Shown piece by piece: positions 309 to 17,337 of a stretch of 64,000 bases of DNA (positions within the stretch are counted from its first letter, which is position 1; each line of letters starts with the position of its first letter). The stretch covers positions 64,001 to 128,000 of IMG/VR virus record IMGVR_UViG_3300021256_000064; one strand, given 5' to 3'. Below the pieces are notes generated by a model. That model was not told the DNA's origin. It did no database searches and saw nothing but the letters and a program-made list of their open reading frames with translations. The translations under genes and the position numbers were made by a program. Source of the stretch: a virus.

Positions 309-382
309 TGCAGGGAAAGAGATTCGAACTCTAATTATGCAACTTTTGAGGTTGCCACGTCTACCAATTGCGTCATCCCTGC
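309..382 (-). tRNA. tRNA with anticodon CAA (Leu codon UUG) but class I architecture (5-nt variable loop)
   Basis: GCAGGGA/TCCCTGC acceptor, anticodon stem GCAAC/GTTGC, loop CTCAAAA, T-loop TTCGAAT, A73. Confidence 0.6.
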
Positions 383-599
383 TCAAGCTTTTAGGTCAGC
401 CAACCACACATCCACGTTTAACCTCCCGACATTTGTTCCCTGGAGGAAATTTTTTGGTCATCCGATATTTCATAGTTTTACAGTTTCGTCAACTAACCAA
501 AATAACTACTCCCGAAATCGCACTCCTCGGAATAGGGCACGCTTTACTTTAAGTCAGTTAACTGCACATCCGTTTATACACTTATTTGCTATCGTGTGA

Positions 600-672
600 A
601 GCTCCCCGAGGGACTCGAACCCTCAACCTAGTGATTACAAATCACTTGCGCTGCCAATTGCGCCAGAGAAGC
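600..672 (-). tRNA. tRNA-Thr(UGU)
   Basis: acceptor GCTTCTC with 2 G-U, D-stem GCGC, anticodon stem AGTGA/TCACT, loop TTTGTAA, T-arm GAGGG-TTCGAGT-CCCTC. Confidence 0.7.
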
Positions 673-1100
673 AAAAGCGGCTTATATTCTCTATAAACCG
701 CAGTCTATATTACAACTGAGCATTTTCGTCTTAACTACTTGCTCAGATTATAAAGGATTGCGGCTACACGCCCACCAAATCATTGCGTTACTTTGAGTCT
801 CCGAGTTGAAGCTCGGTATGTTACGTCTTTACACTATTTGGTATCGTGGACCCCGCATTTAGCAAGACTATGATCACTCGTCTTGGATACTTAGGCTCGC
901 ATCAAACCACCTCTTATTTTAACTACCCTTTGGCTGGGGCTGCGTGTTTACCAAACCGCTGGCTAATCATTTGCCCGATTAGTAGGGAGAATTTTTCTCT
1001 ATAGAAATTCTCCAAAAGCACACCCTCATTTAGCCCAGATGTAGGCTACACCATTTTCTTTCACGGAAGTGAACACGTGAAAACGGAGGTGTATCCGCGA

Positions 1101-1174
1101 GTGGCGGGTATGGGATTCGAACCCATGACCTTCAGGATATGAACCTGACGAGCTACCAGACTGCTACCAACCCG
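1101..1174 (-). tRNA. tRNA with anticodon CAU (elongator Met or Ile2-type)
   Basis: anticodon stem TCAGG/CCTGA, loop TTCATAT, T-arm ATGGG-TTCGAAT-CCCAT, G1-C72; one acceptor mismatch. Confidence 0.6.
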
Positions 1175-1178
1175 CTAT

Positions 1179-1253
1179 ATCACCCGACTGGGATTCGAAC
1201 CCAGGATCCGCGGTTTTAGAGACCGCTGTGTTAAGCCACTCCACTATCGGGCG
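1179..1253 (-). tRNA. amber suppressor tRNA, anticodon CUA (reads UAG), class I, A73, U8, G18G19
   Basis: anticodon stem GCGGT/ACCGC with loop CTCTAAA (plus-strand TAG at 1217-1219); acceptor CGCCCGA/TCGGGTG; T-arm CTGGG-(G)TTCGAAT-CCCAG. Confidence 0.75.
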
Positions 1254-1963
1254 CTAGAAATTATAGTGACTCGGCGTGGAAACAAAGCTTACCACCATAC
1301 TTTTGAATAAAAATCATTTTGCCTAGGTAACCAACCCTAATCGCCACTATAATTAACGTGGGTAAATGTTCTCTCTCTGCCTGTCCCACCTTGTTGACCG
1401 CATCTTGCTTTCAATCCATTTATAAAATCAGTCTATCATTTATAAATCCCCCTATTTTTACAAGTAGATGCATAGCCAAGAGTTTCAACAAATTTATATA
1501 AATATAGCTTTGTCCATTTTGAGGCTCCCTTTATACTTTCTATAGCCTGAATTCCGTAGGTCATGACTCCCACAAAGGTAGTCTGCTATGGTCTCTCCCT
1601 ACCGACCGCCGCAGTGTGGTGGACTCTTTAAGGGTTTATGCGCACTATTTACCTTAATCGCCATTGCTATATTTTGTTTTCATTTTATTCAAGACAGATA
1701 ATCTTCGTAGTAACAAGTTTCAGTTACAAAGTATTTTGCTGTATCTGTCTTTATCTTACTTATATATTATAACAAAAATTTTTATAAAAATCAATCGTTG
1801 AGTGTGTAGTTTCAATCACACGCATCTGTTTAGGGTTGCAATGATATGTTCTAAGGTATCTTACGGTTCTTCCCCTGCCTTATGAGGTGTCTCTCCTCGA
1901 TGTCCCTAAGTAATTCAGCTTTATTTTCTTATTGACTTTTAATACTTGTCTATCAACGATTGA

Positions 1964-2036
1964 TACCCCGTGGGAGAGTCGAACTCCCGTCTCTGCCGTG
2001 AAAGGGCAGTGGCTTAAACCGCTTGCCTAACGGGGC
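1964..2036 (-). tRNA. tRNA-Glu(UUC)
   Basis: acceptor GCCCCGT/ACGGGGT, anticodon stem CTGCC/GGCAG, loop CTTTCAC, T-arm GGGAG-TTCGACT-CTCCC. Confidence 0.75.
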
Positions 2037-2194
2037 ATTATTTATTTACAACAACACTCTACTGTAATAAAATCAAATCTTTCCTGAATAAAGAGAACTT
2101 CTTTGTAAGTTCTAACGAAAGTCATATGTCTTACTTTGTCATCATCTCTGTAATATACAATATAAAGCATAACTACTCTCCTTTTCTTAAAAAG

Positions 2195-2250
2195 ATTTTT
2201 TTTTAACTTACAATAATATTATATTATATTTTTTTATAAATATCAAATAA
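2195..2250 (-). promoter_or_regulatory. sigma70-type promoter module (minus) within tRNA array
   Basis: TATATTATATTAT...AAATATCAAA motif family shared with early-gene promoters. Confidence 0.4.
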
Positions 2251-2413
2251 AAGATTTATCTTGGTACGCATTATCAAGAGGCGCGATAAATACTGATAAC
2301 TGAGTTTACTTTGCCTTCTTATTAGACGTTTGCCACAAAGCCACATATCATACGCCGGTGGTAGTTTAACTCTAATCCATGTTAACGTCGATTTTAATGT
2401 CTTATCTGACTAG

Positions 2414-2487
2414 CGGCTCTGAAGGGACTCGAACCCTCGACCTCGTGCGTGACAGGCACGCGTGCCACTCTTCTGCACCACAGAGCC
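2414..2487 (-). tRNA. tRNA-Asp(GUC)
   Basis: acceptor GGCTCTG/CAGAGCC, D-stem GTGC/GCAC, anticodon stem CGTGC/GCACG, loop CTGTCAC, G73. Confidence 0.8.
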
Positions 2488-2492
2488 ATATA

Positions 2493-2672
2493 TCACTTAT
2501 TTGCTTTTCCTTCTATTGTAACTCTTCCCTTTACATAATCAACATAATGTTCATCCGTATAAAACCCTTTCATAGATTTATAATGGTCTAATTCAACAGA
2601 ATCTAACGGAACGGAAAAGTGATTCGCTATAATAACTATAATATCTTGTTCGGTCAGTTCATAAACAGTTTT
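2493..2672 (-). CDS. small hypothetical protein (about 60 aa) inside tRNA array
   Basis: ORF track 2493..2723; internal ATG with AAGGAG RBS. Confidence 0.4.
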   Translation of the reverse strand, partial: KTVYELTEQDIIVIIANHFSVPLDSVELDHYKSMKGFYTDEHYVDYVKGRVTIEGKANK

Positions 2673-2910
2673 CATAAAAAATCTCCTTTTTATTAAGAGT
2701 GTATTTCCCTCGTAAGGACGCATACACTAGGCGCGCCTGCAAACTTGGTTATTTTTTACTCCAGTAACACCTGGCTAAAATCCCGAAAAACAGCCGCGGT
2801 TAGTCACGCTCTTTTTGTTTTCTGTTGAAACTGGTGAGACCCTAACTAGTCCTTTCCAAAGTCACCGCAGCGAATATTTAATGTCTCTGTTTGCGGACGT
2901 TTGAGACAAA

Positions 2911-2983
2911 TACTTCAGGAGGGACTCGAACCCACAAAATCTTGTTCCTAAGACAAGCGCGTCTGCCGTTGCGCCACTGAAGC
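2911..2983 (-). tRNA. tRNA with anticodon UAG (Leu CUA/CUG) but class I architecture
   Basis: acceptor GCTTCAG/CTGAAGT, anticodon stem CTTGT/ACAAG, loop CTTAGGA, T-loop TTCGAGT. Confidence 0.5.
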
Positions 2984-3223
2984 TTACTAAGTAGATAGGT
3001 GCCACCCTTTTAGCCCTGCTCAGGTATCTACTATACCTTACCCTCACTATCTGAGGTGCGAGAAAGATTTCACCTTTATAATCTTTCAAAGATACTTGAC
3101 TTTTACCAGGCACCAAGATTGCCTGACCACTCGTCCTTTACTCCCCTTATGGCGACCGCGGCTATATACTCAACAGCTTAGATTTACATTGGCAAGAGGT
3201 AAATCAACTCTTAGCGCGACAGT

Positions 3224-3291
3224 AGGGCTCGAACCTACCTTTCTAGCTTACTTACTAGAATGTGACCTGTTCCATATCGCGGGCATGCATC
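3224..3291 (-). ncRNA. short tRNA-like (68 nt) with apparent 8-nt anticodon loop; possible pseudo-tRNA
   Basis: acceptor CGCGATA/TGTCGCG, T-arm GTAGG-TTCGAGC-CCTAC, stem TCTAG/CTAGA around loop TAAGTAAG. Confidence 0.3.
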
Positions 3292-3439
3292 ATTTGAGCC
3301 GCGTATCTCAAATGCAAACGGGTACGTACTTTTCATAATTTCTGTGCCCTTTGGGACCTACCTTACTTTTATGAACCGTTCTTTTACACTATTCCTGTTT
3401 GGTAGGAAAAACACCTCACTGTCTCGGTGTGAAACCGGC

Positions 3440-3512
3440 GCGGCTCCTGGAGGACTCGAACCTTCGACCCGCTGCTTAACAGGCAGCTGCTCTGCCAACT
3501 GAGCTAAGAAGC
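3440..3512 (-). tRNA. tRNA-Asn(GUU)
   Basis: D-arm GCTC-AGTTGGCA-GAGC, anticodon stem GCTGC/GCAGC, loop CTGTTAA, T-loop TTCGAGT, G73. Confidence 0.8.
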
Positions 3513-3806
3513 CAAATGTGAGCTTGTTTTAGGCGGACTTCCTCACTGTTCAACCGCACGCCGGATTTGCATTGGGTCAGGCGCGTGACCTTGACAAGAT
3601 AGTAAGCTCTTTTTCTAAATTTCCTTTTAATAGGTAGGCAACTTTATCAAAAAAATATGAGCCACAAAAAACTTTAGTTCTTTATTGGTTTTTCAGTGAA
3701 TTTCAATTTTTTTAAAATTATATCATCTGATTTTTTTGAATTGCTGTTTTACTATCTTTATTATATATATATTATATCATATATTTTTTAAAAAATCAAT
3801 AAAAAA

Positions 3807-3986
3807 TTAATCTACATAAAAAGTTCTTTTTTCACCACAGCATAAACATGTTACTGTTTGACATTCTACAATTCCACTTGGAAGAAAATTAAAACTATAA
3901 TGTTCGCCTGCTGTTGCATAACTTTTACATTTTTCATTATGATTTTCAACCCATTTATCTAATTTCTCATCTGTTTTAAATACCAT
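3807..3986 (-). CDS. small Cys-rich (CxxC...CxxC) zinc-binding protein
   Basis: RC ATG preceded by AAGGAG; overlaps ORF-track 3959..4168. Confidence 0.45.
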   Translation of the reverse strand: MVFKTDEKLDKWVENHNEKCKSYATAGEHYSFNFLPSGIVECQTVTCLCCGEKRTFYVD

Positions 3987-4049
3987 TTGTATTTCTCCTT
4001 TTTTATTAAAAATACATTGATTTTTTTAATCAAGCCCGCCCAAGAAATT

Positions 4050-4901
4050 TTAGAAAAATTCCTTGAGCAGAGCAGCCCTCCGCGGATTACGGAGTTTCTT
4101 AAGAGCGGTAGCTTCAATCTGACGAACTCGTTCTCTACTAATACCAAGTTCTTTACCAATTTCATCAAGCGTTTTTGCTCTATTCATACCAATACCAAAT
4201 CTATTTTTGATAATAAGCTGCTCGCGGTCAGTCAAAGTATTAAGGATATTCTGAACTGCTTCTTTTCTTTCGTCATCCTCAATATTCATAAAAGAATCTG
4301 CAACAGATTCATCTTCAATAAAAGAACCAACAGTAGTATCCTCGTCATCTCCAATAACTACATCAAGAGAAGAAGTATCTTTCATCCATGAATATGCTTC
4401 TTTAACTTTTTTAATATCAATTCCAAGAGCTTCCGCAATATCTGCTTCTTTCGGCTCTCTGTTATGAGACTGCTGGAAATCTCTTTCAGCTTTTTTAATT
4501 TTACTAATCAATTCAATAACATGAATTGGAATACGAATATTTCTAGTCTGGTCCATAACCGCACGAGAAATAGACTGTTTAATCCAATAGGTTGCATAAG
4601 TAGAAAATCTAAAACCTTTATCAACCTCATACTTTTCTGTTGCTTTAATCAGACCAAAATTACCTTCCTGAATAAGGTCAGAAAGAGTAAGCCCTCGTCC
4701 CATATACTTCTTAGCAATAGAAACAACAAGACGGAGATTATGGTTAATCAAAGCATTCTTTGCTCCCTGATTTCCTTTTGCGGCAGCCTCAGCATATCTT
4801 ACTTCATCCTCTTTTGAAAGAAGATTATACTGGCTAATTTCATTGAGATAAACTTTAATAGAATTAACAGTAGTTGCTTCAGACGCTTTAATTTCTGCCA
4901 T
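4050..4901 (-). CDS. phage-encoded sigma-70 family RNA polymerase sigma factor (regions 2-4 recognisable); no in-frame TAG
   Basis: 283 aa; YATYWIKQSI (region 2.x), TLDEIGKELGISRERVRQIEATALKKLR (region 4.2 HTH); AAGGAG RBS. Confidence 0.85.
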   Translation of the reverse strand: MAEIKASEATTVNSIKVYLNEISQYNLLSKEDEVRYAEAAAKGNQGAKNALINHNLRLVVSIAKKYMGRGLTLSDLIQEGNFGLIKATEKYEVDKGFRFSTYATYWIKQSISRAVMDQTRNIRIPIHVIELISKIKKAERDFQQSHNREPKEADIAEALGIDIKKVKEAYSWMKDTSSLDVVIGDDEDTTVGSFIEDESVADSFMNIEDDERKEAVQNILNTLTDREQLIIKNRFGIGMNRAKTLDEIGKELGISRERVRQIEATALKKLRNPRRAALLKEFF

Positions 4902-4986
4902 AATAAACTCCTTTATGTTTTTTCTATCTTTACTGTATATATATTATATAATAATTTTTTTAAAAAATCAAAAAAGATTTTTTGAA

Positions 4987-5057
4987 TAGGGCATAATGGA
5001 GTCGAACCAGTATCACTGGTTTATAAGACCAGCGCTCTCACCACTGAGCTAATGCCC
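4987..5057 (-). tRNA. tRNA with anticodon UAU (Ile, AUA reader)
   Basis: acceptor GGGGCAT/ATGCCCT, D-arm GCTC..GAGC, anticodon stem CTGGT/ACCAG, loop CTTATAA. Confidence 0.55.
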
Positions 5058-5060
5058 CAT

Positions 5061-5133
5061 ATATCTCATAAGGGAATCGAACCCCTATCTTAACATTCGT
5101 AGTGTTATATTCTGTCCATTAAACTAATGAGAT
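5061..5133 (-). tRNA. tRNA-Arg(ACG)
   Basis: acceptor ATCTCAT/ATGAGAT, anticodon stem TAACA/TGTTA, loop CTACGAA, T-arm AGGGG-TTCGATT-CCCTT. Confidence 0.65.
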
Positions 5134-5134
5134 A

Positions 5135-5763: not shown

Positions 5764-5970
5764 TTATTTTATTACCTCTTCTACATCTATTGTGTTAATA
5801 TCACCATAGTTTTTAAAAATCCAATTACTAGCATCATAAAGATTTTTCATTTTAATAAAAAGAATAGTTTCATTAGTAACAATATTAAAAATTCTAAAAA
5901 CTTTCATATTTAATATTTTTTCCTTTTCATATTGTATATATATTATATCAAAAAATATTAAAAATGTCAA
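5764..5970 (-). CDS. hypothetical protein (68 aa)
   Basis: ORF track; promoter module at 5925-5975. Confidence 0.4.
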   Translation of the reverse strand: MTFLIFFDIIYIQYEKEKILNMKVFRIFNIVTNETILFIKMKNLYDASNWIFKNYGDINTIDVEEVIK

Positions 5971-6005
5971 CTCTTCTTTTTAACTTGTTTTACGATAATT
6001 TTATT

Positions 6006-6742
6006 CTATTTAAAAGTATCTGCTAAATCAATAAAACGATCACATATTTTACATCCATTAGGATCATACATACAACGTTTTTTACATCCTGTACGAACTG
6101 CTCCAAAAGTACTCATAATACATCTGTTATCAAGATTTTCTTTAAATGAAGGAATAACTTCCTTAAGTTCTCCAAACCATTTCTCTTGTTTATAGATTTT
6201 AAATAGAACTTGTTGTCTTTCTTTGTCTGAAATTAATTCAAAAACATCTACAAAATTAGAATAAATATAAATATCTTCTGGTCTAATAAAAAACTTTTTT
6301 ATATCAGGTATTTCAAAGAAACTTGACTGACATATATTTGGATAAACTCTAACTTTGATATTATTTTCATGTAATAATTTACTTATTGAATTAATAAAAA
6401 ACCCTAGTTCTTCACAAATATACATATCTGTTGGGTGATGTTGAATTAGACCATACAACTAATCAAAAGTTGTAACGGGGTTTGTGAAAAAGTATGGAAG
6501 CTAATAAGATTTAGCCCTTAATAAAGAATCTTTATTAAAAAAGTCAAATATGATTTTAAAATTAGAATATTTATCATATAATGCTTTTAATAATCTTGCA
6601 TCTATTTCTTCAAAAGATTCAGAAACATCTATAATAATAGTCTTATCTTGATACTATGTTAAGAAATCTTCTAATGTGCGGTCTGCAGGATTATATACTA
6701 TTTTTAACTAATCCGCATCTTTTAAATATTTTTCATATGGGT
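6006..6742 (-). CDS. hypothetical protein with C-terminal Cys cluster; contains 4 in-frame TAG codons (early-region gene using the recoded codon)
   Basis: ATG at RC 6742 with AAGGAG RBS; reading frame continuous into ORF 6006..6458 through TAGs only. Confidence 0.55.
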
Positions 6743-6819
6743 AATACTGTAAGCAAAACATAAAATCTCCTTATAATAAAAAAGGGGAGATTAATTAATC
6801 TCCCCCTCATTTTATTTTA

Positions 6820-7224
6820 TTACTCTTCAACAGCTGTTGAAATTCTACGATAAGCCATTCTCTTCTTACCGTCCACTCTAACTGACTCCTTCTCAATAAG
6901 TCCTGCATTAACAAGCTTACCAAGTCTAGCAGTTACCTTAGCACGAGTAACTTCCTCGTCATCAAAAGCAACTGTAATCTCATCTACAGTAACAAGCTTA
7001 TCTGTAATAAGTTCATAGATTGCGTCTGTAAGAGCATCAGATTCAGCCTTTTTCTTCTCTGCGCGGGCTGCCGCAGCTGCCTTACGTTTATCAAGAGCTT
7101 CAATCTGCTTATCAATAAACTCTACATACTCTGTCTGCTTCTCTGCATCAGTTACTGTTGTAAGAACAAGTTCTCTAAGTTCCTCAAAATACATAGCCTT
7201 TGTTTTCTTTGTTGCGTTTTCCAT
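6820..7224 (-). CDS. winged-helix-like protein, distant member of the 117-aa paralog family
   Basis: 134 aa; shares Lys/Ala-rich linker and C-terminal R-x-T-x-R-L-x-x-L-V-x-x-G motif. Confidence 0.5.
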   Translation of the reverse strand: MENATKKTKAMYFEELRELVLTTVTDAEKQTEYVEFIDKQIEALDKRKAAAAARAEKKKAESDALTDAIYELITDKLVTVDEITVAFDDEEVTRAKVTARLGKLVNAGLIEKESVRVDGKKRMAYRRISTAVEE

Positions 7225-7324
7225 AGTGTTTTCTCCTTAATAAAATTGAATGTTTATTTTTTCTCTTTATCTTATGTATCTATTATACCAAAAATTTTTA
7301 AAAGTTGCAAATATTTTTTATTAT

Positions 7325-7537
7325 TTATTTTAGACATGCATTGATATATCTAATCTCTCGTTCTGTTAAATCTTTAATTAAAAGCCCATGCTTTTTAAAG
7401 ACTAATTCAATTTCCCAAAAGCTAAAAGTAGGCTTAGGGTCCTCTTTTATTTCCTGTATCGCTGCATTGATTTTACCAGCTCTTGTTGGAAGAAGTCCTT
7501 CAGCTTCCGCATAAAACATCATTTCCGCAAACTTCAT
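7325..7537 (-). CDS. hypothetical protein (70 aa)
   Basis: ORF track. Confidence 0.45.
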   Translation of the reverse strand: MKFAEMMFYAEAEGLLPTRAGKINAAIQEIKEDPKPTFSFWEIELVFKKHGLLIKDLTEREIRYINACLK

Positions 7538-7543
7538 ATTTAT

Positions 7544-7699
7544 TCATCCTCCTCCGGCTCATCTTCGTCCTCTTTTGGGTTTAGTATTGGACAATTTTCA
7601 CAATCGCATTCTCCAAATATTGTACACCAAGATTCAGGCTGAGTATCAAAATTTCCCATTAATGTTCTCATATAAATGCAACCTGTCCAATACATTAAA
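7544..7699 (-). CDS. small Cys-rich acidic protein (about 51 aa)
   Basis: GGAGG RBS + ATG on minus strand; not in ORF track (under 60 aa). Confidence 0.35.
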
Positions 7700-7765
7700 T
7701 TTTTCCTCCTCTTTTTATATTATTATTATATCAAAAATTATTATAAAAAACAAATATTTTATTTT

Positions 7766-8293
7766 TTATTCAATCCAATAAACGATTCTAATCATACTAT
7801 AATTATCTTTCCAAGAACCACAACCTTCCATAACCTCAAAAAAAGTATCAACACGATTTTTAAGAGACATAAGAGGAGTTGGTTTCATAATTTTAGTTAC
7901 TGGTTCATTATTATAATAAGCTTCATCCATAGTTTCATAATCAGGAACCTCTGGATGTTCAAGACAATAAATATACATATCAGCATAAGTAAACCAACGA
8001 ACAATAGGAGTATAAGTATGTTTTTCATCAATTTCATAACAATGCTCGTTATAAACGGTTTTTATATCTGTTGAAACGTCTTTAGGTAAACCATAATGAA
8101 TCCCTTTCATACTTGGAAAATCTCCTGCATTATTTTCCACAATAGAAAAAAGGTCATGACAACCATTATAAGGAAAAAGTGGTGCGGGAACTCGCTTAGT
8201 GTGATTGTAATTCCAAACTAGCGGATGATATATTTCATATTTACCAGTATGCTCATCGATTTTTTCTACAAAAAAGAAAGGACTTCTACTCAT
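7766..8293 (-). CDS. hypothetical protein (175 aa)
   Basis: ORF track. Confidence 0.55.
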   Translation of the reverse strand: MSRSPFFFVEKIDEHTGKYEIYHPLVWNYNHTKRVPAPLFPYNGCHDLFSIVENNAGDFPSMKGIHYGLPKDVSTDIKTVYNEHCYEIDEKHTYTPIVRWFTYADMYIYCLEHPEVPDYETMDEAYYNNEPVTKIMKPTPLMSLKNRVDTFFEVMEGCGSWKDNYSMIRIVYWIE

Positions 8294-8305
8294 AATATCA
8301 CTCCT

Positions 8306-8512
8306 TTAATAATCTTTTATTTGCTGTTTCATATCTTTGCTTCTAATTTTTTCCATCTTTTGTTTCTTTAAATTTTGGCGGGCAGGGGCACTTCCAAGCT
8401 TAGGTTTATATTTACCGCAAGTCTGACAAGCTTTTCTAAAAGTTCCTGCTTTTCCTTTTAAACAGCTCCCTTCATACTCATAAAAAATACAAGCAATTTC
8501 TCTATCTTTCAT
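8306..8512 (-). CDS. small basic zinc-ribbon protein (68 aa)
   Basis: ORF track; CxxC pairs. Confidence 0.45.
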   Translation of the reverse strand: MKDREIACIFYEYEGSCLKGKAGTFRKACQTCGKYKPKLGSAPARQNLKKQKMEKIRSKDMKQQIKDY

Positions 8513-8523
8513 TGTTTTCTCCT

Positions 8524-9201
8524 TTAATCATCTAAGTAATTTGAAAAATCAAAGATGACAGGTGTCTTATTTAATCTATATCCATAATTTCCAGAATGAG
8601 AATCTTCTAAAATATCTAAATCAACTTCATCACAATATTTTAGAAATTCTCTAACTTTATCTTCTCCATAGACATCTAAACACTTAGCGACCCAATCAAC
8701 TGTTAAATCACCTGTTACTCTTTTTTTACTAAATTGTCTTGCTATCTTTTGAGATTTCTTAGAAGGTTTTTTAAAAGATTCTAACCAACTATCATCTTCA
8801 GATATAGCTTTTTCTTGAATAAAAATTCTAATTCCATCAATTGTTTTATAATATATTGTCTTAGCTACAAAACAATCCAAATTTAAAGACTTTAATTTTT
8901 TATATTTCTCATATTCCGCCAAACAATAATCGCTATTATCTTCAACACTTGGTGCCCAATAAAAACTACTCCACTGATTATCTAAATACTGCCCCTTGAA
9001 AGGGATTTTAATAACAACATTTTTTAAACTGGGAGATATAATTACCATTTTAGAAACGCCATACTCCAATTTTGCTTGAGAATCAATTTCACTGATTTTC
9101 TTACGCATTTCTTTAATTTGTTCTGATTTATAACCGAAGTCCTTTGGGAAAGGAGTAATTGCATTTAAAAATTTATTTACTAGATTATAATCAAAAGTCA
9201 T
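8524..9201 (-). CDS. hypothetical protein (225 aa)
   Basis: ORF track; own promoter module 9205-9260. Confidence 0.55.
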   Translation of the reverse strand: MTFDYNLVNKFLNAITPFPKDFGYKSEQIKEMRKKISEIDSQAKLEYGVSKMVIISPSLKNVVIKIPFKGQYLDNQWSSFYWAPSVEDNSDYCLAEYEKYKKLKSLNLDCFVAKTIYYKTIDGIRIFIQEKAISEDDSWLESFKKPSKKSQKIARQFSKKRVTGDLTVDWVAKCLDVYGEDKVREFLKYCDEVDLDILEDSHSGNYGYRLNKTPVIFDFSNYLDD

Positions 9202-9285
9202 AATTAAACCGCCTTTTTATATTATATATATATTATAATATATATTTATAAAAAAATCAATGAGGGATTTTTATCCCTCATTGAT

Positions 9286-9519
9286 TTACCATTCAATGAC
9301 GTAATCGTGCTGTGACTTATGATGAATTTTATATCCCAACTTTTTTAAATGTCTGATATTTGTTTTCTCAATACCGCCATGCCATACAAGTCCAGTATAT
9401 CCTTGCTGAGACGAAAAATCAATATACTGAAGAATAAATTTTAATTCTGTTCTATTGATTTTAGATTCATACTTATTGACGTTGTTTCTTGCGGCACTTG
9501 CGTTCCAATTAAAAAGCAT
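9286..9519 (-). CDS. hypothetical protein (77 aa)
   Basis: ORF track. Confidence 0.45.
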   Translation of the reverse strand: MLFNWNASAARNNVNKYESKINRTELKFILQYIDFSSQQGYTGLVWHGGIEKTNIRHLKKLGYKIHHKSQHDYVIEW

Positions 9520-9522
9520 TTT

Positions 9523-10440
9523 TTATTCCTCCTCAATCTTTTTTACAATACATCTTGTTAAATAAGTATTTTTAATTCCCATATACTCGTCAAATTTTTT
9601 GATTGTACCCGTAAGGTCAACTGTTTCACCAACAGCAACATTAAGACCTTTTGAAGTCATCCATACAAATACATAATTTTCAGATGTAAATGTATAAACA
9701 TTTGTATATCCATAAATACCTTCAAAGCCGCGGATGCTGGCAATTTTTGCTGTAATATTACGAAGTCTTTCTTTCTCTACGCCAGGATAAAATTCTGAAG
9801 TAGACGGTCCCTTAAGCTCAGCAATCTTACGAGCTACAATATTCTTTGCATCTTCTTTAAAACTTGCCCACTTTGATTCAGGATTATAATCAAAAACCTC
9901 ATCAAAAGCAAGTTCGCAGAGATTATAACCCTCCGGAAGTTCTACTTCTTTTGAAAAGAACCATTTAAAAGTGGGGTCAAATTTTCCACCAAGCTTCTTC
10001 AGCTCATCTTTGATTGCGTAAGTGTCATCACCATAAACAAGATAGATTTTCTCATTTTCGCCGAAGCCGCGTTTAAGAGCTACTTCATGCTTATATTCAT
10101 CAGCATGGTCAATAGCATCCTGGATTCTTGCGGCAGCCGCAGCTTCACGTTTCTCTGCAGCTCTTGCTTTTGCCTTCTGAAGAGCATTGTATTCTTTCTC
10201 TGTATAGGCGCGAACTGTTTTGGTCACAACCTTCGCACCGCCGCACTTATAGCAGACACCGCCATCAACAGGAATAGGAACATACTCGCCATTATGAACA
10301 TGAGAAACAATAAAGCCAAGTCCTGAACAGCGGTCACACGGCTCTTTTACCTTAATAACCATCTTACCTTTTTCATTCTCGAACGGCTCACCAATAACTT
10401 CCATATTCTTATAAGAGTCAGCTACAAAGAATTTTTCCAT
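9523..10440 (-). CDS. hypothetical protein with N-terminal zinc ribbon (305 aa)
   Basis: ORF track; CDRCSG...CYKCGG. Confidence 0.55.
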   Translation of the reverse strand: MEKFFVADSYKNMEVIGEPFENEKGKMVIKVKEPCDRCSGLGFIVSHVHNGEYVPIPVDGGVCYKCGGAKVVTKTVRAYTEKEYNALQKAKARAAEKREAAAAARIQDAIDHADEYKHEVALKRGFGENEKIYLVYGDDTYAIKDELKKLGGKFDPTFKWFFSKEVELPEGYNLCELAFDEVFDYNPESKWASFKEDAKNIVARKIAELKGPSTSEFYPGVEKERLRNITAKIASIRGFEGIYGYTNVYTFTSENYVFVWMTSKGLNVAVGETVDLTGTIKKFDEYMGIKNTYLTRCIVKKIEEE

Positions 10441-10627
10441 GCTTTTCTTTTCCTTTCCTTTCTTTTTTATTACTGCTCTTCAACTAAATTAATCTCACAA
10501 TCCCATCCCTTATCTCTTAAATCTTCTTCTAAAAGATAACGAACAGTAGATTCTGTAGCTTCATCGTCTGCTAAAAAAATATGTGCTTTTAATATTACAG
10601 TAAATTCTTTTGTCTTTTCCATGCTCA

Positions 10628-10840
10628 TCACTCCTTATTCATAAGACGCATTTTTACTTGATTGATATTAATTCTTGTATTATCAATATTTCGCTGTAAT
10701 TCTTTTAATTTCATTATAGTATCTAGATCATGATAATAAGATTTATCTTTATTCTTTCGATATACATGACAACGAAAATATTCATTATATTCATTTGTAA
10801 GATTAATTAATCTTATTTCAAGTAATTGTAAATTTTTCAT
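10628..10840 (-). CDS. hypothetical protein (70 aa)
   Basis: ORF track. Confidence 0.4.
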   Translation of the reverse strand: MKNLQLLEIRLINLTNEYNEYFRCHVYRKNKDKSYYHDLDTIMKLKELQRNIDNTRININQVKMRLMNKE

Positions 10841-11117
10841 TGTCTAAGCCTTCTTTCTTTATCTTGTACATATATTATAACAAAATTTTTAAAAAAAATA
10901 AAGCTGCGATTTTGCAGCTTTACATCTTAATAAATAATGGGGCACATATAAAAATAGAAATTATTAGTATTATAAAAATCTTCATTATTGTGGATAAATT
11001 AAGCATAATTGTGTAATATACAAAAGAAGTATTAGTATGCCAACTATTGTATAAGCATATTCAGTTTCTATTGCACTTTCTCCTATTAACCATCCGCATA
11101 ATGCCCCTATACATATA

Positions 11118-11321
11118 TTAAATATTAACAATTTTCCCTCCTTTATCAATCCAGTGACCTTCATGCAGTTCGGGCTGAATGGTCGGCTGTTTAATCACTA
11201 ATCCAGCAATATAGCCAAGCCAGAAAGAGCCGACCTTATCATCTTGCTTGATAACTGTTTTCGTGTCCTCTTTGATTTCATTAAGAAGGACATCTGCATC
11301 AATCAATCTCATCTCTTTCAC
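11118..11321 (-). CDS. hypothetical protein (67 aa)
   Basis: ORF track. Confidence 0.4.
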   Translation of the reverse strand: MKEMRLIDADVLLNEIKEDTKTVIKQDDKVGSFWLGYIAGLVIKQPTIQPELHEGHWIDKGGKIVNI

Positions 11322-11871
11322 CTCTCATATCAGCTCCACAGTTCGAGCAATAATTTTCTGCGTGAAAACCAATATTGTACCCACATTGGTTACATGTATA
11401 TACTTTTTCACCAAGACCGCCAAAGACGGATTTGTGAGGAATCCACTCACCCTTTTTACGTTCTGGCTGCGCGGGTGGTAATTCTGATAAAATATCCTCT
11501 ACGCTATCAGCAATTGTCCTTCCTGTACTCGTAAAATCAAGAATTTCATCATAGCTATTACGTACAGCATCAATTGCCTGTTGTCTGTCAATCATATTAG
11601 ATGATGTGGGCTGTTTTCTGCGCTCCTGTAATTCTTTAAGCCATGTAACAAGCTGCTTAATTACGAGCAAATACTTTTTGTCAAATTCTTTTGCATATCC
11701 ATTATAACTATCTGTTTTCTTAAATTCCTGTAGTTCTCCAAGCTCTGCGGTAAGCTGTTCAATTACTTTCTGTGATTCCTGTGATTCTATCAGATTGTGA
11801 TTCTCATAGATATTCACAAATTGCTCATATTGTTTAATTGCTTCCTCAAGTGTTAACGTAAATTCCGCCAT
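11299..11871 (-). CDS. coiled-coil protein with C-terminal zinc ribbon (190 aa)
   Basis: ORF track; CNQCG...CSNCG. Confidence 0.5.
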   Translation of the reverse strand: MAEFTLTLEEAIKQYEQFVNIYENHNLIESQESQKVIEQLTAELGELQEFKKTDSYNGYAKEFDKKYLLVIKQLVTWLKELQERRKQPTSSNMIDRQQAIDAVRNSYDEILDFTSTGRTIADSVEDILSELPPAQPERKKGEWIPHKSVFGGLGEKVYTCNQCGYNIGFHAENYCSNCGADMRGERDEID

Positions 11872-11873
11872 TC

Positions 11874-12011
11874 TTTAGTCGCCTCCTGCCATAGCACCAG
11901 CCATAATAATAGCTAGCGCTAAAAACATTGTATTATTATCTGCGTGTAAGTCAAGCCAAACGGACAAAATTGCCCATCCAAGTGCAGCTATAATTGCATA
12001 AAAAAATCTCA
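11874..12011 (-). CDS. small hydrophobic membrane peptide (about 45 aa)
   Basis: hydrophobic ORF read on minus strand. Confidence 0.3.
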
Positions 12012-12209
12012 CTTTATTTCACCCATCCTTTCTTTGATAATATATTCATTTAAATTTATTTCAAGACGTTTACAAAGACTGTGTATTGCAATTTTTTTAT
12101 TTGAATTAAGTCGTAATGCATATAATGCTGCATCGCCAATATCATCTTTATGAATATAACCAAATTTTTTAAGTAATTTTTTAATCATATGATTTATTTC
12201 CCTTCTCAT
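12009..12209 (-). CDS. small possible HTH protein (66 aa)
   Basis: ORF track. Confidence 0.4.
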   Translation of the reverse strand: MRREINHMIKKLLKKFGYIHKDDIGDAALYALRLNSNKKIAIHSLCKRLEINLNEYIIKERMGEIK

Positions 12210-12597
12210 TAATCACTGTCAATAGAAGAGTGTTAACTTCCATATTTTTGCCTTCTTGCCAAGCATGAAAAATTGCATTATTTGCATCTATGTCATCCCC
12301 AACAATAGGATAGCTAGGACTAGCCCATATCATTCCGCATTTATGGCAATTAAATTTCATATGTTTCCAATTATATGTTTTTTTAAATAATCCTTTTCCG
12401 CCAATTGGTCTAGATTTTTCTTCTTTAATCTCTTGATAAGAAACTGTTCCTATTCTTGAATAAGAATATGGAGAAGAACTGTATGGATATAAACTATTAC
12501 TATGGCAATAAGGACAAGTACCATAAACTTCTAATATTTTTTCTTCCATATGATCATCAATATTTAATTTACCAGGTAATCTAATTACATTAATCAT
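12181..12597 (-). CDS. hypothetical protein (138 aa), Cys/His-rich
   Basis: ORF track. Confidence 0.5.
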   Translation of the reverse strand: MINVIRLPGKLNIDDHMEEKILEVYGTCPYCHSNSLYPYSSSPYSYSRIGTVSYQEIKEEKSRPIGGKGLFKKTYNWKHMKFNCHKCGMIWASPSYPIVGDDIDANNAIFHAWQEGKNMEVNTLLLTVINEKGNKSYD

Positions 12598-12686
12598 TTA
12601 TTAAGTTCTCCAAATATAAATAACAAATTTTCCTTTTATTATAAATTATAAAATAATTTTTTGGTAAAAACAACTGAAAGTTGTTT

Positions 12687-13193
12687 TTACCAATTCTGAA
12701 TAACTCTTAACTCCGCATTACAACATTTTGTAACATAATTATGCGGGTACTTGGTCATTTTACAAGCACGTGACCTGCCGCCAACCAGCTTGCCGCACTT
12801 AGAGCAATAGAGGGTATATTTATAGATTTCTTCATTTGCTCTTGTGCGTTCAAGATTATTATAAATAGCGGTATCATTTGTTGTACCAATTTTCTGACAA
12901 TAGAAACGGAATGTAGCATCATGACCATGACTCTCATGGGTGATTGCGCAAGCTACATAATGGGCGCATTCATGAGCAATTACATCTTCAATGCATTTAT
13001 CTGTCGCGGTTTCCAGAAGCTGACGTGAAATTTCAATGCGGCTGGGGTTCCAAACAGAGCCAGACTTCTGATAGAAGCATCTACCAAGAGTACGAGTAAG
13101 TCTACCGTTAATAATTACAGGGGAATTAAACTTAACATCACATCTGCCGCAATAATCAATACAAAGTTCTGTAATTCTTTCTATTGTCCACAT
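12687..13193 (-). CDS. SprT-like zinc metalloprotease domain protein
   Basis: 168 aa; HECAHY HExxH motif plus C-terminal zinc ribbon. Confidence 0.65.
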   Translation of the reverse strand: MWTIERITELCIDYCGRCDVKFNSPVIINGRLTRTLGRCFYQKSGSVWNPSRIEISRQLLETATDKCIEDVIAHECAHYVACAITHESHGHDATFRFYCQKIGTTNDTAIYNNLERTRANEEIYKYTLYCSKCGKLVGGRSRACKMTKYPHNYVTKCCNAELRVIQNW

Positions 13194-13282
13194 AGTTTTT
13201 TTCTCCTTTTTTATTATATAAATATTATATCATAAAAGTTTTAAAAAATCAATAGAAGAAAATAGAAGGAGAAGGAACGATT

Positions 13283-13312
13283 GGACAAACTAAAAAAATT
13301 ATTGTATAATAT
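13283..13312 (+). promoter_or_regulatory. plus-strand sigma70-type promoter at start of the plus island
   Basis: TTGGAC-N17-TATAAT, upstream of 13342 ATG. Confidence 0.45.
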
Positions 13313-13341
13313 AAATATAAAAATGAAAGGTGTGATTTAAA

Positions 13342-13575
13342 ATGTTGATAACTTGTCGATGCGGCGGTTGTCCTTATCATAGTAATTAGGGCTTTTGTTT
13401 AAAGCCAACTGTTTTGAATATAGATGAAAATGGAATGTGTGGAGTGGTATGGAAAAGAGGCCAGCAGCGTGTATTAGAAAGACCTTTTACGGATGCTTAT
13501 TATCCAAAAGGAGAAGTGTTAATTATAGATGGAAAGGAGTATAGTTATTGTGAAGAAGATATTAAAAAGAATTAA
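13342..13575 (+). CDS. small Cys-rich protein, 1 in-frame TAG
   Basis: AAAGGTG RBS, ATG 13342, TAA stop; TAG inside. Confidence 0.4.
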
Positions 13576-13740
13576 AGATATTTTTTGTAATCTCAATAGA
13601 AGAAATGAATAGCTTAAATCTGAAAGTATTCAGTCTCTTGATAGGAATGATATATATTTAAATTTATACGATAAAGAAAAGAAATAGAGTGTTGGCAGAT
13701 GGCGGAAAGCATCTGATTTTATAGATATAGGAGAGAAGTT

Positions 13741-13932
13741 ATGAATAGAGCGCAAAGAAGAAGACTAATGAAGAAAATACCGGGTTACAAGGGCATCGTT
13801 AACGAGACCTCCGCAAAAGCACTTGATGATTTGGAAAAAATGTTCCAAAAGAAATGGATGGATGATGAAACACTTAATGAAGGTGAAAAAGATTATACAG
13901 ATCATGGAGATGATGATATTTATAATGATTAA
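13741..13932 (+). CDS. hypothetical acidic protein (63 aa)
   Basis: ORF track. Confidence 0.45.
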   Translation: MNRAQRRRLMKKIPGYKGIVNETSAKALDDLEKMFQKKWMDDETLNEGEKDYTDHGDDDIYND

Positions 13933-14191
13933 TTATGATGATATTTTTTCAAGAGTAGAAAAGATGGATGCGGCGGCTGGTGATGTATTAATTTTTTATA
14001 TAAAGACTGATGATGCGGGGTTGCCTTATTTAAGTTTTGATGAGTATTTAGATATATTTAATACAGTGAGAAATTTTTTAGATGATAAAAATGTATCTGT
14101 ACTCTTTATGATTGATAAAGTTAGCCTTTTTTCTGTTGAAAATGCAAATGAGGCTAAAGAACATTTAAAAAAGTGTATTTCTTATATTTAG
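13925..14191 (+). CDS. hypothetical protein (about 88 aa)
   Basis: in-frame ATG within ORF 13823..14191. Confidence 0.4.
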   Translation: MINYDDIFSRVEKMDAAAGDVLIFYIKTDDAGLPYLSFDEYLDIFNTVRNFLDDKNVSVLFMIDKVSLFSVENANEAKEHLKKCISYI

Positions 14192-14439
14192 GAGGCAGTG
14201 AATAAGGCTGGGGATATTGAAAATGGAAAGTTTCTGAATCCGATTTAGGTGTAGTTTTATTGTGAAGATGCGGAGGGCTAGGTTTGAGAATTTTTTAACG
14301 TAGTATATGACGGCAAGTGAACAGCTATCGCCGCGTAAAAAATTATAACTGTTGGGTAAATATTTGAAATTTTTGGGTAAAAGTAATTAATTTATATGAT
14401 GGTTTTTTAAAATATATAAAATGAGAAAGGAGAGCTTTT

Positions 14440-15078
14440 ATGACAATTATTGAAAAACATTTTCCCGCAGACACGAGTTTAGATATGTAGACTTTTTTAA
14501 ATAATAAGAATATAGACGGAAGATTATATGCGTATTTGCAAAGTAAATCAATTCCAGTTTTAGTAGAAGAAAATGGTATTAAAAATTATGAGACTAGAGT
14601 AGATAAGTATTAGATAGGTACTCAAACTGAGTTTTGTCAAGCAGTTCATATTAAATCACCAAAGACGTTAAGAAAATATTTAAATATTTTAATGATGACT
14701 GGTTATGTTGAAGATAAAGGGCCTTATTATTTATTGCCGCGTAAGGAAGATATATTTTTTAAGATACCGTTAGATACGTTGAGATTTATTCAAAATACTG
14801 TACAAGAGGATGTTATTAAAATTTATATTTATTTAGGTCAAAGATACAAATATGCGGCGATAAATGGCTACAAATATTCTTTTACTATTAAAGAGATTGT
14901 AGAGCATTTAGGATTAAGTGTTAATAGTGAAAGTAGTAGAGCTTTTGTTAAAGATGGTCTGGATGCGTTAATGAATAATGGGTTGATAAAATTTGTTCCT
15001 TTTCATGAGGGGCGGGTGCCTAAATTGCGTTTAATAGATTTTTCATACGAGTATAAGACAAATTTTTTCAAAAGATAA
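14440..15078 (+). CDS. hypothetical protein (about 212 aa), 2 in-frame TAG; possible winged-helix replication or regulatory protein
   Basis: GGAGAG RBS + ATG 14440, same frame as ORF 14692..15078, separated only by TAG. Confidence 0.5.
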
Positions 15079-15091
15079 TTTATTAGATTGG

Positions 15092-15138
15092 GTAAAAAAT
15101 GATGTTTGATTTGGGTAAAAAATGATGTTTGATAGTAA
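15092..15138. repeat. direct tandem repeat 2 x TTGGGTAAAAAATGATGTTTGAT
   Basis: seen directly. Confidence 0.8.
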
Positions 15139-15184
15139 CAAAAAGTATAGAGTTCTAAGTAAGTAAAGAGTAATTTTTCTAAGT

Positions 15185-15235
15185 AAATAAGTGATTTGAT
15201 CTTTCGCTTCGCTCAAGATCAAATCACTTATAGAG
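15185..15235. repeat. perfect palindrome AAGTGATTTGATC-(TTTCGCTTCGCTCAA)-GATCAAATCACTT
   Basis: seen directly; possible terminator or protein site. Confidence 0.7.
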
Positions 15236-15289
15236 CCGGGCATCTTAGTTAGCGGGGAAAATAAGATGGATAATTAATTAGGCATTTTC

Positions 15290-15400
15290 ATCAAAATTGT
15301 CTAAATTTGCTAAAAAATGGATAAACTCTTAACGATTAAGTTATATATATATAATCGTTAAGAGTTTAATTAAAAATTGGCATATTTAGACAATTTTAAA
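15290..15400. repeat. nested inverted repeats around an AT-rich core: AAATTGTCTAAAT...ATTTAGACAATTT flanking AAACTCTTAACGATT-(AAGTTATATATATAT)-AATCGTTAAGAGTTT
   Basis: seen directly; ori-like or operator-like. Confidence 0.7.
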
Positions 15401-16000: not shown

Positions 16001-16059
16001 GTATGGAGTTTGTTGCGGTTTTGGGGATAATGTTATTTGTGTTATGGAGGAATATGTGA

Positions 16060-17265: not shown

Positions 17266-17337
17266 ACCATATAATAATATAGTTTGTCAATACTAATTTA
17301 AAAAAATAAAAAAAGATAAAGCATTTCCGCCTTATCT

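Follow-up and report, generated by a model that had tools for sequence, protein, structure and literature searches.

A putative glutamate-inserting amber suppressor tRNA in the tRNA array of an SPbeta-like phage

The locus and its genes

The DNA analysed here, called the window throughout, is a stretch of 64,000 nucleotides covering positions 64,001 to 128,000 of the IMG/VR virus record IMGVR_UViG_3300021256_000064, and close to its start the minus strand encodes a tRNA with the anticodon CUA, tRNA(CUA), which is complementary to the stop codon UAG. This gene, at 1180-1253 (-), is quite probably a glutamate-inserting amber suppressor of an SPbeta-like phage, in which UAG would be read as glutamate (Glu) and UAA and UGA would stay stops. 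The phage is an SPbeta-like virus with a genome of about 125-140 kb, and its host is probably a member of the Bacillota, since all cultured relatives of its terminase infect Bacillota and its virion genes match SPbeta Pfam families. An origin in rumen or gut samples seems indicated by contig labels such as SHIW14-1_SAMN02144230 and STEW19-1_SAMEA5384020, which, read as names, look like those of sheep and cattle rumen studies. Comparison of 11.5 kb of the late genes with deposited phages by megablast returned no match.

The tRNA array and a block of early genes lie on the minus strand, and the late, virion block lies on the plus strand (Table 1). ARAGORN detects 11 tRNAs within the window, and contig L162, an ENA contig of 124.6 kb that is 99.97% identical to positions 1-14901 of the window, reveals that the full array comprises 24 tRNAs and runs past window position 1. 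Among them are the phage's own tRNA-Gln(UUG), tRNA-Glu(UUC) and tRNA-Trp(CCA), the first and the last of which lie beyond window position 1. An earlier, sequence-only reading of this DNA had placed the suppressor beside a tRNA(CAU) in an array of 11 or more tRNAs, which agrees with the 11 counted in the window and the 24 of the full array. The two genes are likewise adjacent in the close relatives L086 and L162/L163, and they are separated by about 100 nt in L101.

Table 1. Features of the window and their positions
Feature	Position	Strand	Remarks
tRNA array, part within the window	309..5134	(-)	10 tRNAs; early strand
tRNA(CAU)	1101..1176	(-)	38.1 bits (Rfam); 3 nt downstream of the suppressor
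Amber suppressor tRNA(CUA)	1180..1253	(-)	74 nt; ARAGORN and Rfam RF00005
Sigma-70/sigma-A-like promoter match, TTGATT-17-TATAAT with TG extension	1766..1794	(-)	Upstream of the suppressor; consensus match only
tRNA-Glu(UUC)	1962..2037	(-)	Comparator for the suppressor D-arm
Sigma-70-family factor	4050..4901	(-)	Regions 1.2, 2, 3 and 4; inside the array; no TAG
264-residue gene, no function assigned	5967..6761	(-)	Beside the array; 5 in-frame TAGs
Early block	6820..35772	(-)	Short genes, essentially TAG-free, ending in TAA or TGA
First late-strand gene	35918..37048	(+)	Matches phrog_5767 (annotated sigma factor); 9 in-frame TAGs, first at codon 3
Late (virion) block	36984..63534	(+)	SPbeta-like content
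Terminase large subunit	38423..40159	(+)	17 in-frame TAGs
Portal protein	40611..42182	(+)	6 in-frame TAGs

Structure and conservation of tRNA(CUA)

The Rfam model RF00005 aligns to tRNA(CUA) over its full length (1-71 of 71) and in the same register as ARAGORN, with 62.8 bits, where the gathering score is 29, and an E-value of 3e-11 for the window as a whole; under this covariance model the anticodon stays CUA and the sequence folds as a full-length tRNA. The sequence-only reading had given the gene the coordinates 1179-1253, of which the end is right and the start falls one base past the discriminator, the ARAGORN search that it had proposed as a check returning a 74-nt tRNA(CUA) that begins at 1180. 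The acceptor stem is formed by C1-G72, G2.U71, C3-G70, C4-G69, C5-G68, G6-C67 and A7-U66 and is followed by U8. The D-stem consists of G10-C25, U11-A24 and G12-C23 together with a G13.A22 mismatch, and the 9-nt D-loop (AGUGGCUUA) contains G18G19. The anticodon stem GCGGU/ACCGC encloses the loop C32-U33-C34-U35-A36-A37-A38 (CUCUAAA), the variable loop has 5 nt (GGAUC) and is thus of class I, the T-loop is UUCGAAU, the discriminator is A73, and no CCA is encoded in the gene. These are the features of a canonical elongator tRNA, with an above-threshold cloverleaf, a 7-nt anticodon loop, U8, G18G19 and the T-loop. The stem, the loops, U8, G18G19, A73 and the class I variable loop had all been listed by the sequence-only reading and were found as described, and the 5-nt variable loop bears out its argument that the class I architecture rules out a Ser, Leu or Tyr identity.

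The label 'Pyl' that ARAGORN attaches to the gene is merely the tool's default name for CUA. A tRNA-Pyl needs a very short D-loop, a 3-nt variable loop, a 6-bp anticodon stem and pyl genes; the cloverleaf is canonical, no pyl genes are present among the annotated genes of the 64-kb window, and this identity was rejected.

The same tRNA body occurs in 17 copies on viral and metagenome contigs, gathered by exact-match scans with the 3' half of the tRNA, and all 17 have the anticodon CUA, the loop CUCUAAA, A73 and no CCA. A sibling of this body with a sense anticodon was sought with both the 5' and the 3' half, and none was found, every one of the 17 copies recovered being CUA. Across the 8 distinct sequences of the family, 95.2% of the cells in the alignment are paired and five pairs are changed on both sides, four of them in the anticodon stem, compared with 33-46% paired in controls in which the pairing was slid by 1-3 columns; U11-A24 is invariant in the 8 members aligned. 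A phage-encoded tRNA(CUA) is also present in all four of the recoded relatives for which both the terminase and the array loci were recovered. ARAGORN, Rfam and covariation agree on the central claim of the sequence-only reading, a phage-encoded amber suppressor tRNA with the anticodon CUA in the tRNA array, and the gene is canonical, conserved and always CUA-bearing, located in the array of the early strand.

The 17-nt anticodon arm, GCGGUCUCUAAAACCGC (window 1211-1227 (-)), is found exactly on 51 viral contigs (loci L080-L130), in 41 distinct suppressor tRNAs with unrelated bodies, which include Gln-type and Glu-type bodies, class II bodies with long arms, and a number with long inserts. It resembles the arm of tRNA-Trp, which in this phage reads UUGGUCUCCAAAACCAA, and its distribution looks like convergence on, or exchange of, an optimal UAG-reading arm. 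BLAST searches against phages yielded tRNA-Trp and crAss 'tRNA-Gln' matches, mostly in the anticodon and T arms, and these were discarded as identity evidence because the same anticodon arm sits on 41 different suppressor bodies.

Late genes read TAG as a sense codon

Reading TAG as sense raises the share of the window covered by open reading frames of at least 100 amino acids from 50%, the standard-code value, to 78%, and the longest of them grows from 506 to 1244 amino acids. The frames that contain TAG are gathered in a single block on the plus strand, which starts at about 35.9 kb and runs to the window's end, and in it the terminase, the portal and the virion genes become whole once TAG is read as sense. 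Together with the 17 in-frame TAGs of the terminase, this gain in coverage confirms that the late genes need TAG as a sense codon, as the sequence-only reading had proposed. The 21 late genes contain 113 TAG, 374 GAA and 65 GAG codons, TAG making up about 20% of the three, and the recoded codons are concentrated late (113 vs 7): the 43 minus-strand genes of at least 60 amino acids at 4050-35772 have 7 TAGs in 5206 codons, five of them in the gene at 5967-6761, which is the sole sizeable minus-strand gene with in-frame TAGs. TAA terminates most of the genes called in the window. Within the late block, TAG is nearly absent from the genes at 43638-44216, 44237-45298, 47150-49567 and 60693-61766 (+), which probably encode the most abundant virion proteins.

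The meaning of TAG

Codon alignments with relatives indicate that TAG very probably stands for Glu in this phage. A total of 79 related viral loci were collected, whose terminases contain between 0 and 17 in-frame TAGs each. When 51 terminases were aligned by codon, TAG turned up in 51 columns, and there the remaining sequences contribute 1478 Glu, 312 Asp and 67 Gln codons; apart from TAG, many of the columns are invariant for Glu, and conserved-Gln columns almost never have TAG. Terminase homologues in a large protein database run full length and have E or Q at the 17 TAG positions, with a roughly constant E+Q total, and ten of these positions are Glu in every one of the 11 standard-code relatives aligned. 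One of the ten, residue 183, occupies the second acidic position of a Walker-B-like GLME-TAG motif, for which Enterococcus phage H1 has GLIDE; a P-loop-like PRAYSKS precedes it by about 96 residues, and TTAG follows 42 residues on. Judged by motif pattern, residue 183 is the probable Walker-B catalytic Glu, an assignment that is motif-based because PDB chains gave no match to the terminase in either sequence or profile searches.

A wider comparison was made with 10 late-gene families, in which only relatives without TAG in the gene concerned served as the reference, leaving 55 scorable TAG sites of the window. The residues facing TAG are distributed as they are for the window's own GAA and GAG codons, and not as for CAA and CAG (Table 2). 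The summed log-likelihoods at the TAG sites are -97.6 for E, -135.3 for D, -157.7 for Q, -162 for K and -223 for W, the last of which faces 0% of these sites. With a second, strictly standard-code reference, composed of Enterococcus phage H1, Geobacillus virus E3 and 15 clade members with TAG-free terminases, the window TAG sites (n=78) show E 47%, D 11% and Q 5%, which again resembles the phage's own GAA and GAG. As a positive control, the same pipeline and reference were applied to phAss-1, for which TAG=Gln has been published and which is filed at NCBI under 'Caudoviricetes code 15 clade' (PMC10607447); its 20 TAG sites show Q 35% and E 6% and resemble its own CAA and CAG. The two phages can be compared directly in two conserved terminase dipeptides, GGK-E-Q-AA and LK-E-Q-M, in both of which TAG takes the place of E in the window and of Q in phAss-1.

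Table 2. Residues in relatives aligned to TAG, Glu and Gln codons of the window
Window codon	E	D	Q	K
TAG (n=55)	55%	13%	6%	6%
GAA	57%	8%	6%	6%
GAG	57%	9%	2%	6%
CAA	8%	3%	51%	10%
CAG	5%	1%	60%	8%

Genes near the array, pooled by lineage, divide in the same way: at TAG, E (25%) outnumbers Q (10%) in lineages with suppressors of the window family (n=29), and Q (23%) outnumbers E (5%) where the suppressors are of the Gln type (n=43). Unpooled, per-locus TAG profiles around the array were too noisy and were set aside, and the apparent Gln preference of the 97% relative L166 came from antisense open reading frames that overlap its DUF2828 gene.

Neither of the filed codes accommodates these data. 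Code 15 predicts that TAG sites match Gln in standard-code homologues, and the values found were E 55% and Q 6%, or E 47% and Q 5% with the second reference. NCBI code 30 assigns both TAA and TAG to Glu, and in this phage TAA ends most genes and only TAG behaves as Glu. The suggestion of the sequence-only reading that Gln is the inserted amino acid finds no support in the standard-code relatives, which carry Glu at TAG in a profile like that of GAA/GAG and not that of CAA/CAG.

In a few relatives a single TAG falls on an otherwise invariant Trp (TGG), at columns 153 and 242 of the terminase alignment and also in other late-gene families, and W makes up about 4% of all residues aligned to TAG. 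These cases may be TGG-to-TAG mutations that survive as a W-to-E change, or assembly errors.

Identity elements of the tRNA body

Compared with the phage's own tRNA-Gln(UUG) and tRNA-Glu(UUC), the suppressor shares several features with the latter (Table 3). Both have A73, and both have a 9-nt D-loop, ending in ...GGCUUA in the suppressor and in ...GGUUUA in tRNA-Glu. The suppressor shows none of the tRNA-Gln elements of the acceptor stem and discriminator, which are a U1-A72 or otherwise weak first pair, G2-C71, G3-C70 and G73, and it does not have the short D-loop; of the anticodon elements of glutaminyl-tRNA synthetase (GlnRS) it has U35, with A and not G at position 36. U11-A24, part of the E. 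coli tRNA-Glu identity set, is present.

Table 3. Features of the suppressor and of the phage's own tRNA-Gln and tRNA-Glu
Feature	tRNA-Gln(UUG)	tRNA-Glu(UUC)	Suppressor
First pair	U1-A72	G1.U72 (Rfam-bounded reading)	C1-G72
Pairs 2-71 and 3-70	G2-C71, G3-C70	C2-G71, C3-G70	G2.U71, C3-G70
Discriminator	G73	A73	A73
D-loop	7 nt (AGUGGUA)	9 nt (AGCGGUUUA)	9 nt (AGUGGCUUA)
13.22	A.A	A.A	G.A
Variable loop	6 nt	4 nt (AGAC)	5 nt

Sibling suppressors in relatives link the window-type body to tRNA-Glu. The L168 suppressor shares its D-loop and 4-nt variable loop with the tRNA-Glu of the window, and pairs 1-6 of its acceptor stem agree with those of the L099 tRNA-Glu. The suppressors of L099 and L093 have the classic GUCU/GGAC D-stem with U13.G22, combined with a 4-nt variable loop in L099 and a longer one in L093, and those of L168 and L169 have 4-nt variable loops and A13.A22. 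L175 and L190 carry the window-type body with G1-C72, and L226 retains the three arms (D, anticodon and T) but has another acceptor stem. A paired U1-A72 occurs in none of the family members with a parsable acceptor stem. More distant relatives in the phage family have Gln-type suppressors, with U1, an unpaired 1-72, G73 and an encoded CCA, and in relatives at 63-67% identity no suppressor was seen in the region fetched.

The Gln identity suggested by the sequence-only reading is not supported by these elements, U1-A72, G2-C71, G3-C70 and G73 all being missing and the D-loop having 9 nt. The U35 on which that reading leaned is present; it is one of many GlnRS elements, and 18 of the 28 Firmicutes surveyed lack GlnRS. 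Taken as a whole, the earlier account stands in its suppressor tRNA, its array, its TAG-sense late genes and its class I exclusion, and lacks support in its Gln identity.

Charging route and timing of expression

How Glu would reach the suppressor is a more tentative matter. It may be that the host glutamyl-tRNA synthetase (GluRS) charges the tRNA with Glu, by way of its tRNA-Glu-type D-arm, U35 and A37, and that no amidation by GatCAB follows. In a published survey, 18 of 28 Firmicutes had only a non-discriminating GluRS and no GlnRS. Bacterial GatCAB needs U1-A72 and rejects the extra D-loop base of tRNA-Glu (PMC2811023; PMC9976931), and Glu on the suppressor could escape conversion to Gln through the missing U1-A72 and the extra D-loop bases that GatCAB rejects. 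C34 would limit reading to UAG and spare UAA, the main stop codon of the phage.

The array is probably transcribed from host-type promoters, as the near-consensus sigma-70-type matches on its strand weakly suggest by their fit to host polymerase, and the suppressor would then accumulate ahead of late-gene translation. The TAG-rich late genes, including the first late-strand gene with its TAG at codon 3, would then be completed only once the suppressor is present. That this gene has 9 TAGs from codon 3 onwards fits the published idea that recoding holds back late-gene translation until the suppressor tRNA is available.

Several observations weigh against a Glu-inserting tRNA charged and expressed in this way. 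Compared with E. coli tRNA-Glu, the suppressor departs at the first pair (C1-G72 where that tRNA has G1-C72), at 13.22 (G13.A22 for U13-G22) and in the variable loop (5 nt), and the Glu anticodon-loop set U34, U35, C36 and A37 is only half kept (C34, U35, A36, A37). The loss of U34 and C36 is unavoidable because the tRNA is an amber suppressor; both are strong GluRS determinants, and the GluRS of B. subtilis relies on a modified U34. Because several E. coli tRNA-Glu determinants are missing, charging by the host GluRS is not assured. In a whole-body nearest-neighbour test the window tRNA falls nearest to Thr, Cys, Met and Asp with low scores of 0.35-0.38 and no clear isotype, the variants in L168 and L190 being closest to Glu. 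The bacterial tRNAs that match its T-arm and 3' acceptor half are tRNA-Lys, found in a scan of a genome collection in Flavobacteriia and Gammaproteobacteria and uninformative on isotype or host. Because whole-body similarity and the Lys-like T-arm and acceptor do not place the tRNA, the Glu identity rests mainly on the codon evidence, in which the meaning of TAG is inferred from alignments. In addition, 10 of the 28 surveyed Firmicutes have GlnRS, and the host of this phage is inferred to phylum level only; the promoter matches are matches to a consensus only. Lastly, in a genome that extends about 60 kb beyond the window, the search for an aminoacyl-tRNA synthetase covered the window and the array flanks: none was found in the 64-kb window, in about 6 kb beyond its start (L162), or in 10 kb downstream of the DUF2828 gene (97% relative L166). 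No release factor was found in the window or next to the array.

Among the alternatives, the one that survives best, though unlikely, keeps TAG as Glu and assigns the charging to a phage synthetase, a GluRS variant tolerating CUA, or to the help of a phage factor, encoded in the roughly 60 kb outside the window. In its favour, C34 and A36 take away strong GluRS determinants, the GluRS of B. subtilis relies on modified U34, and some recoded phages do encode a synthetase beside the suppressor, such as the pairs of tryptophanyl-tRNA synthetase (TrpRS) and tRNA(UCA). The segments searched, as listed above, contain no such gene, synthetases are rare in recoded phages (Borges et al.), and phAss-1 has none.

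Ambiguous decoding is less probable again. Here a mixture of Glu and Gln would be inserted, through partial amidation or partial mischarging by GlnRS, and the late proteins would tolerate either residue. The free use of TAG at invariant Glu positions speaks against such a mixture, as do the antideterminants of the tRNA against GlnRS (a strong C1-G72, A73, and neither G2-C71 nor G3-C70) and against GatCAB; the comparative data are nevertheless compatible with a minority of Gln, and GlnRS, in hosts that have it, tends to mischarge amber suppressors; 10 of the 28 Firmicutes have this enzyme.

A purely Gln-inserting suppressor, charged by GlnRS through U35 or by GluRS and GatCAB and implying code 15 as in crAss-like phages and phAss-1, is very improbable, despite the precedents: all phage TAG recodings found in the literature are Gln, 28 of 29 phage tRNA(CUA) analysed in E. 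coli extract inserted Gln, the source pipelines already put Q at TAG in this clade, and Q replaces E conservatively. In three analyses the TAG residue profile was that of GAA/GAG and not of CAA/CAG, and the same method recovered Gln for phAss-1. TAG is found at invariant Glu positions, including that of the probable catalytic Walker-B Glu, and almost never in conserved-Gln columns, and the tRNA lacks U1-A72, G2-C71, G3-C70, G73 and G36 and has extra D-loop bases.

The least probable readings of all, in which TAG would be Asp, Lys, Trp or pyrrolysine, or the tRNA a relic with TAG read through by other means, can point to Asp as the second-best fit, to the tRNA-Lys-like T-arm and 3' acceptor half, to the tRNA-Trp-like anticodon arm with its BLAST hits to phage tRNA-Trp genes, and to the ARAGORN label, and they were rejected on the codon profile (log-likelihoods of -135.3 for D, -162 for K and -223 for W vs -97.6 for E, with K at 6% and W at 0% of TAG sites), on the canonical cloverleaf without pyl genes in the window, and, for a relic, on the conservation of the gene with compensatory changes and an invariant CUA in 17 copies.

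Other features of the array and the late block

Rfam alignment of the neighbouring tRNA(CAU) at 1101-1176 shows several non-standard acceptor and D-stem pairs, and initiator, elongator Met and Ile2-type tRNAs are candidates for its identity. Five near-identical sigma-70-like matches (TTGATT or TTGATA, 17 nt, TATAAT) occur on the array strand, at 229-201, 1794-1766, 2246-2218, 3799-3771 and 4971-4943 (-), and the array region has 24 promoter-like sites against 15.3 expected from shuffles. A distant blastn search with the array gave matches limited to generic tRNAs and sigma-factor genes.

Directly downstream of the array lies a conserved DUF2828/DUF7788 protein of 505 amino acids (L162 18602-20119; loci L166-L245), relatives of which are found on at least 173 viral contigs and usually adjoin large tRNA arrays. 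A close recoded relative, IMGVR_UViG_3300021399_000007, the terminase of which is 93% identical, has a second stop-complementary tRNA with the anticodon UUA (L173 6562-6634, equivalent to L086 2898-2972). This tRNA has a Glu-type D-arm (GUCA...AGAC) and scores 51.3 bits against the Rfam tRNA model; the terminase of the same relative has no in-frame TAA, and no counterpart of the tRNA was seen in the window or L162. Genes for phage transfer-messenger RNA (tmRNA) stand at the array end in the recoded clade relative L099 (7283-7563, 101.9 bits) and in L093, a contig with a sibling suppressor (4572-4855, 75.3 bits), and none was seen in the window or L162.

In the late block, two pairs of neighbouring paralogous genes, at 47150-49567 and 51406-58018 (+), have common N-terminal motifs, MA-D/E-ISKITLP..TYDIKD and ..YKLQDSDALPLAGGNVTGPV.., and the larger pair (1218 and 966 amino acids) is also alike over long C-terminal regions. 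By sequence, these pairs look like duplicated tail-fibre or receptor-binding genes. The terminase match extends over about 2.5 kb rather than 1.7 kb in the relatives L026, L028, L051, L065 and L073, owing to an insertion of about 0.8 kb; such insertions are probably introns, inteins or homing elements, because an HNH homing endonuclease is annotated under the terminase match in the Enterococcus phages EF1 and EF5.

Novelty and consequences

In the key papers on phage recoding, TAG becomes Gln and TGA becomes Trp, and the sole further case is TGA as Gly, in phages whose hosts use that same code. Where the phage code differs from that of the host, only TAG to Gln and TGA to Trp were reported, which was explained by easily repurposed GlnRS and TrpRS (Borges et al.), and when 29 phage tRNA(CUA) were analysed in E. 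coli extract, Gln was inserted by 28 of them and Ala by the remaining one. A literature search for stop-to-glutamate reassignment, of incomplete coverage, found ciliates only and no report of a phage with TAG=Glu. If the Glu assignment is true, phage stop-codon recoding would gain a third amino acid, and a Glu code calls for a different charging logic.

A bolder proposal, which we regard as possible and somewhat more doubtful than the charging route itself, is that UAG = Glu is an undescribed natural code of bacterial viruses and that the meaning of UAG within SPbeta-like Bacillota phages is switched between Glu and Gln by tRNA features alone. In such a scheme, a suppressor charged by GluRS would become Gln-tRNA when it looks like tRNA-Gln to GatCAB (or GlnRS), and would stay Glu-tRNA when its first pair is G-C or C-G and its D-loop has the greater length seen in tRNA-Glu, and one host enzyme set would support two phage codes. 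Phage recoding would then extend beyond Gln and Trp, on which the current explanation of GlnRS and TrpRS as uniquely easy to hijack is based. With Gln-type, Glu-type and unrecoded lineages side by side, this phage family is a good system for the onset of a code change.

There is also a practical side. Since TAG would mean Glu here, translation with the standard code 15 would be wrong for these proteins, and recoding-aware pipelines apply table 15, with which public databases would hold the proteins of this clade with Q where E belongs. In the database terminase P0034, for which the DNA was checked, 12 of the 32 Q residues are TAG codons, from which it follows that the source pipeline had applied code 15. 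The mistranslation would touch about 1 in 5 Glu positions of the late proteins, probable catalytic residues included. Clade terminases translated with Q at TAG are seen in public collections (proteins P0001-P0120; L160 10001-11737), and PHROGs appears to hold N- and C-terminal terminase fragments separately as 'unknown function' (phrog_15503 and phrog_24618), which probably derive from standard-code gene calls on recoded phages. A natural amber suppressor that apparently carries Glu and avoids the Gln identity is also of interest to genetic-code engineers, since in E. coli a drift to Gln is common among amber suppressors.

Comparison with known systems

The closest known parallels are phAss-1 and the 'Caudoviricetes code 15 clade' (PMC10607447) and the crAss-like phages (Borges et al.; Peters et al. 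2022), which likewise encode a tRNA(CUA). In these code-15 phages, too, in-frame TAGs are concentrated in late, structural and packaging genes, early genes fit both codes, and no aminoacyl-tRNA synthetase was found nearby. phAss-1 is a distant relative of the present phage, with a terminase that is 44.7% identical in a protein-level search and a similar genome size. The difference lies in the amino acid, which here would be Glu and not Gln, with TAG in the other slot of the same conserved E-Q dipeptides, and in the tRNA body, which here has C1-G72, A73 and a long D-loop, in contrast to the U1, unpaired 1-72, G73 and encoded CCA of Gln-type suppressors.

Among SPbeta-like siphoviruses of Bacillota, such as Bacillus SPbeta, Enterococcus phage H1, Geobacillus virus E3 and the Lactococcus 949 group, the phage shares a homologous, YonF-type terminase, the virion families YonG/YonD/YonB/YomX/YomW/YomV/YomU and a genome of about 120-140 kb, and large tRNA arrays are common to it and to metagenomic SPbeta-like relatives. 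The late genes of the two cultured members compared, Enterococcus phage H1 and Geobacillus virus E3, are annotated uninterrupted and fit the standard code, whereas this clade is recoded.

UAG is also read as Glu by a stop-complementary tRNA in the peritrich ciliate code (NCBI table 30, TAA/TAG = Glu) and in other ciliate stop-to-Glu codes. The ciliate codes belong to eukaryotic nuclei and reassign UAA together with UAG, genome-wide, whereas here only UAG would be reassigned and UAA remains the main stop; unlike in ciliates, the recoding is in a virus, is concentrated in late genes, and presumably takes place in a standard-code host.

Laboratory amber suppressors, such as E. coli supE, su7 and synthetic tRNA(CUA) sets, likewise present CUA in a CUCUAAA loop, on an anticodon arm that is like that of tRNA-Trp or su7. 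In E. coli they tend to be charged with Gln by GlnRS, whereas the probable product here is Glu-tRNA. With respect to the bacterial indirect Gln pathway, made up of a non-discriminating GluRS and GatCAB, the suppressor and the phage's own tRNA-Gln differ in precisely the features that GatCAB reads, the first pair and the size of the D-loop. We know of no natural substrate of that pathway with a CUA anticodon.

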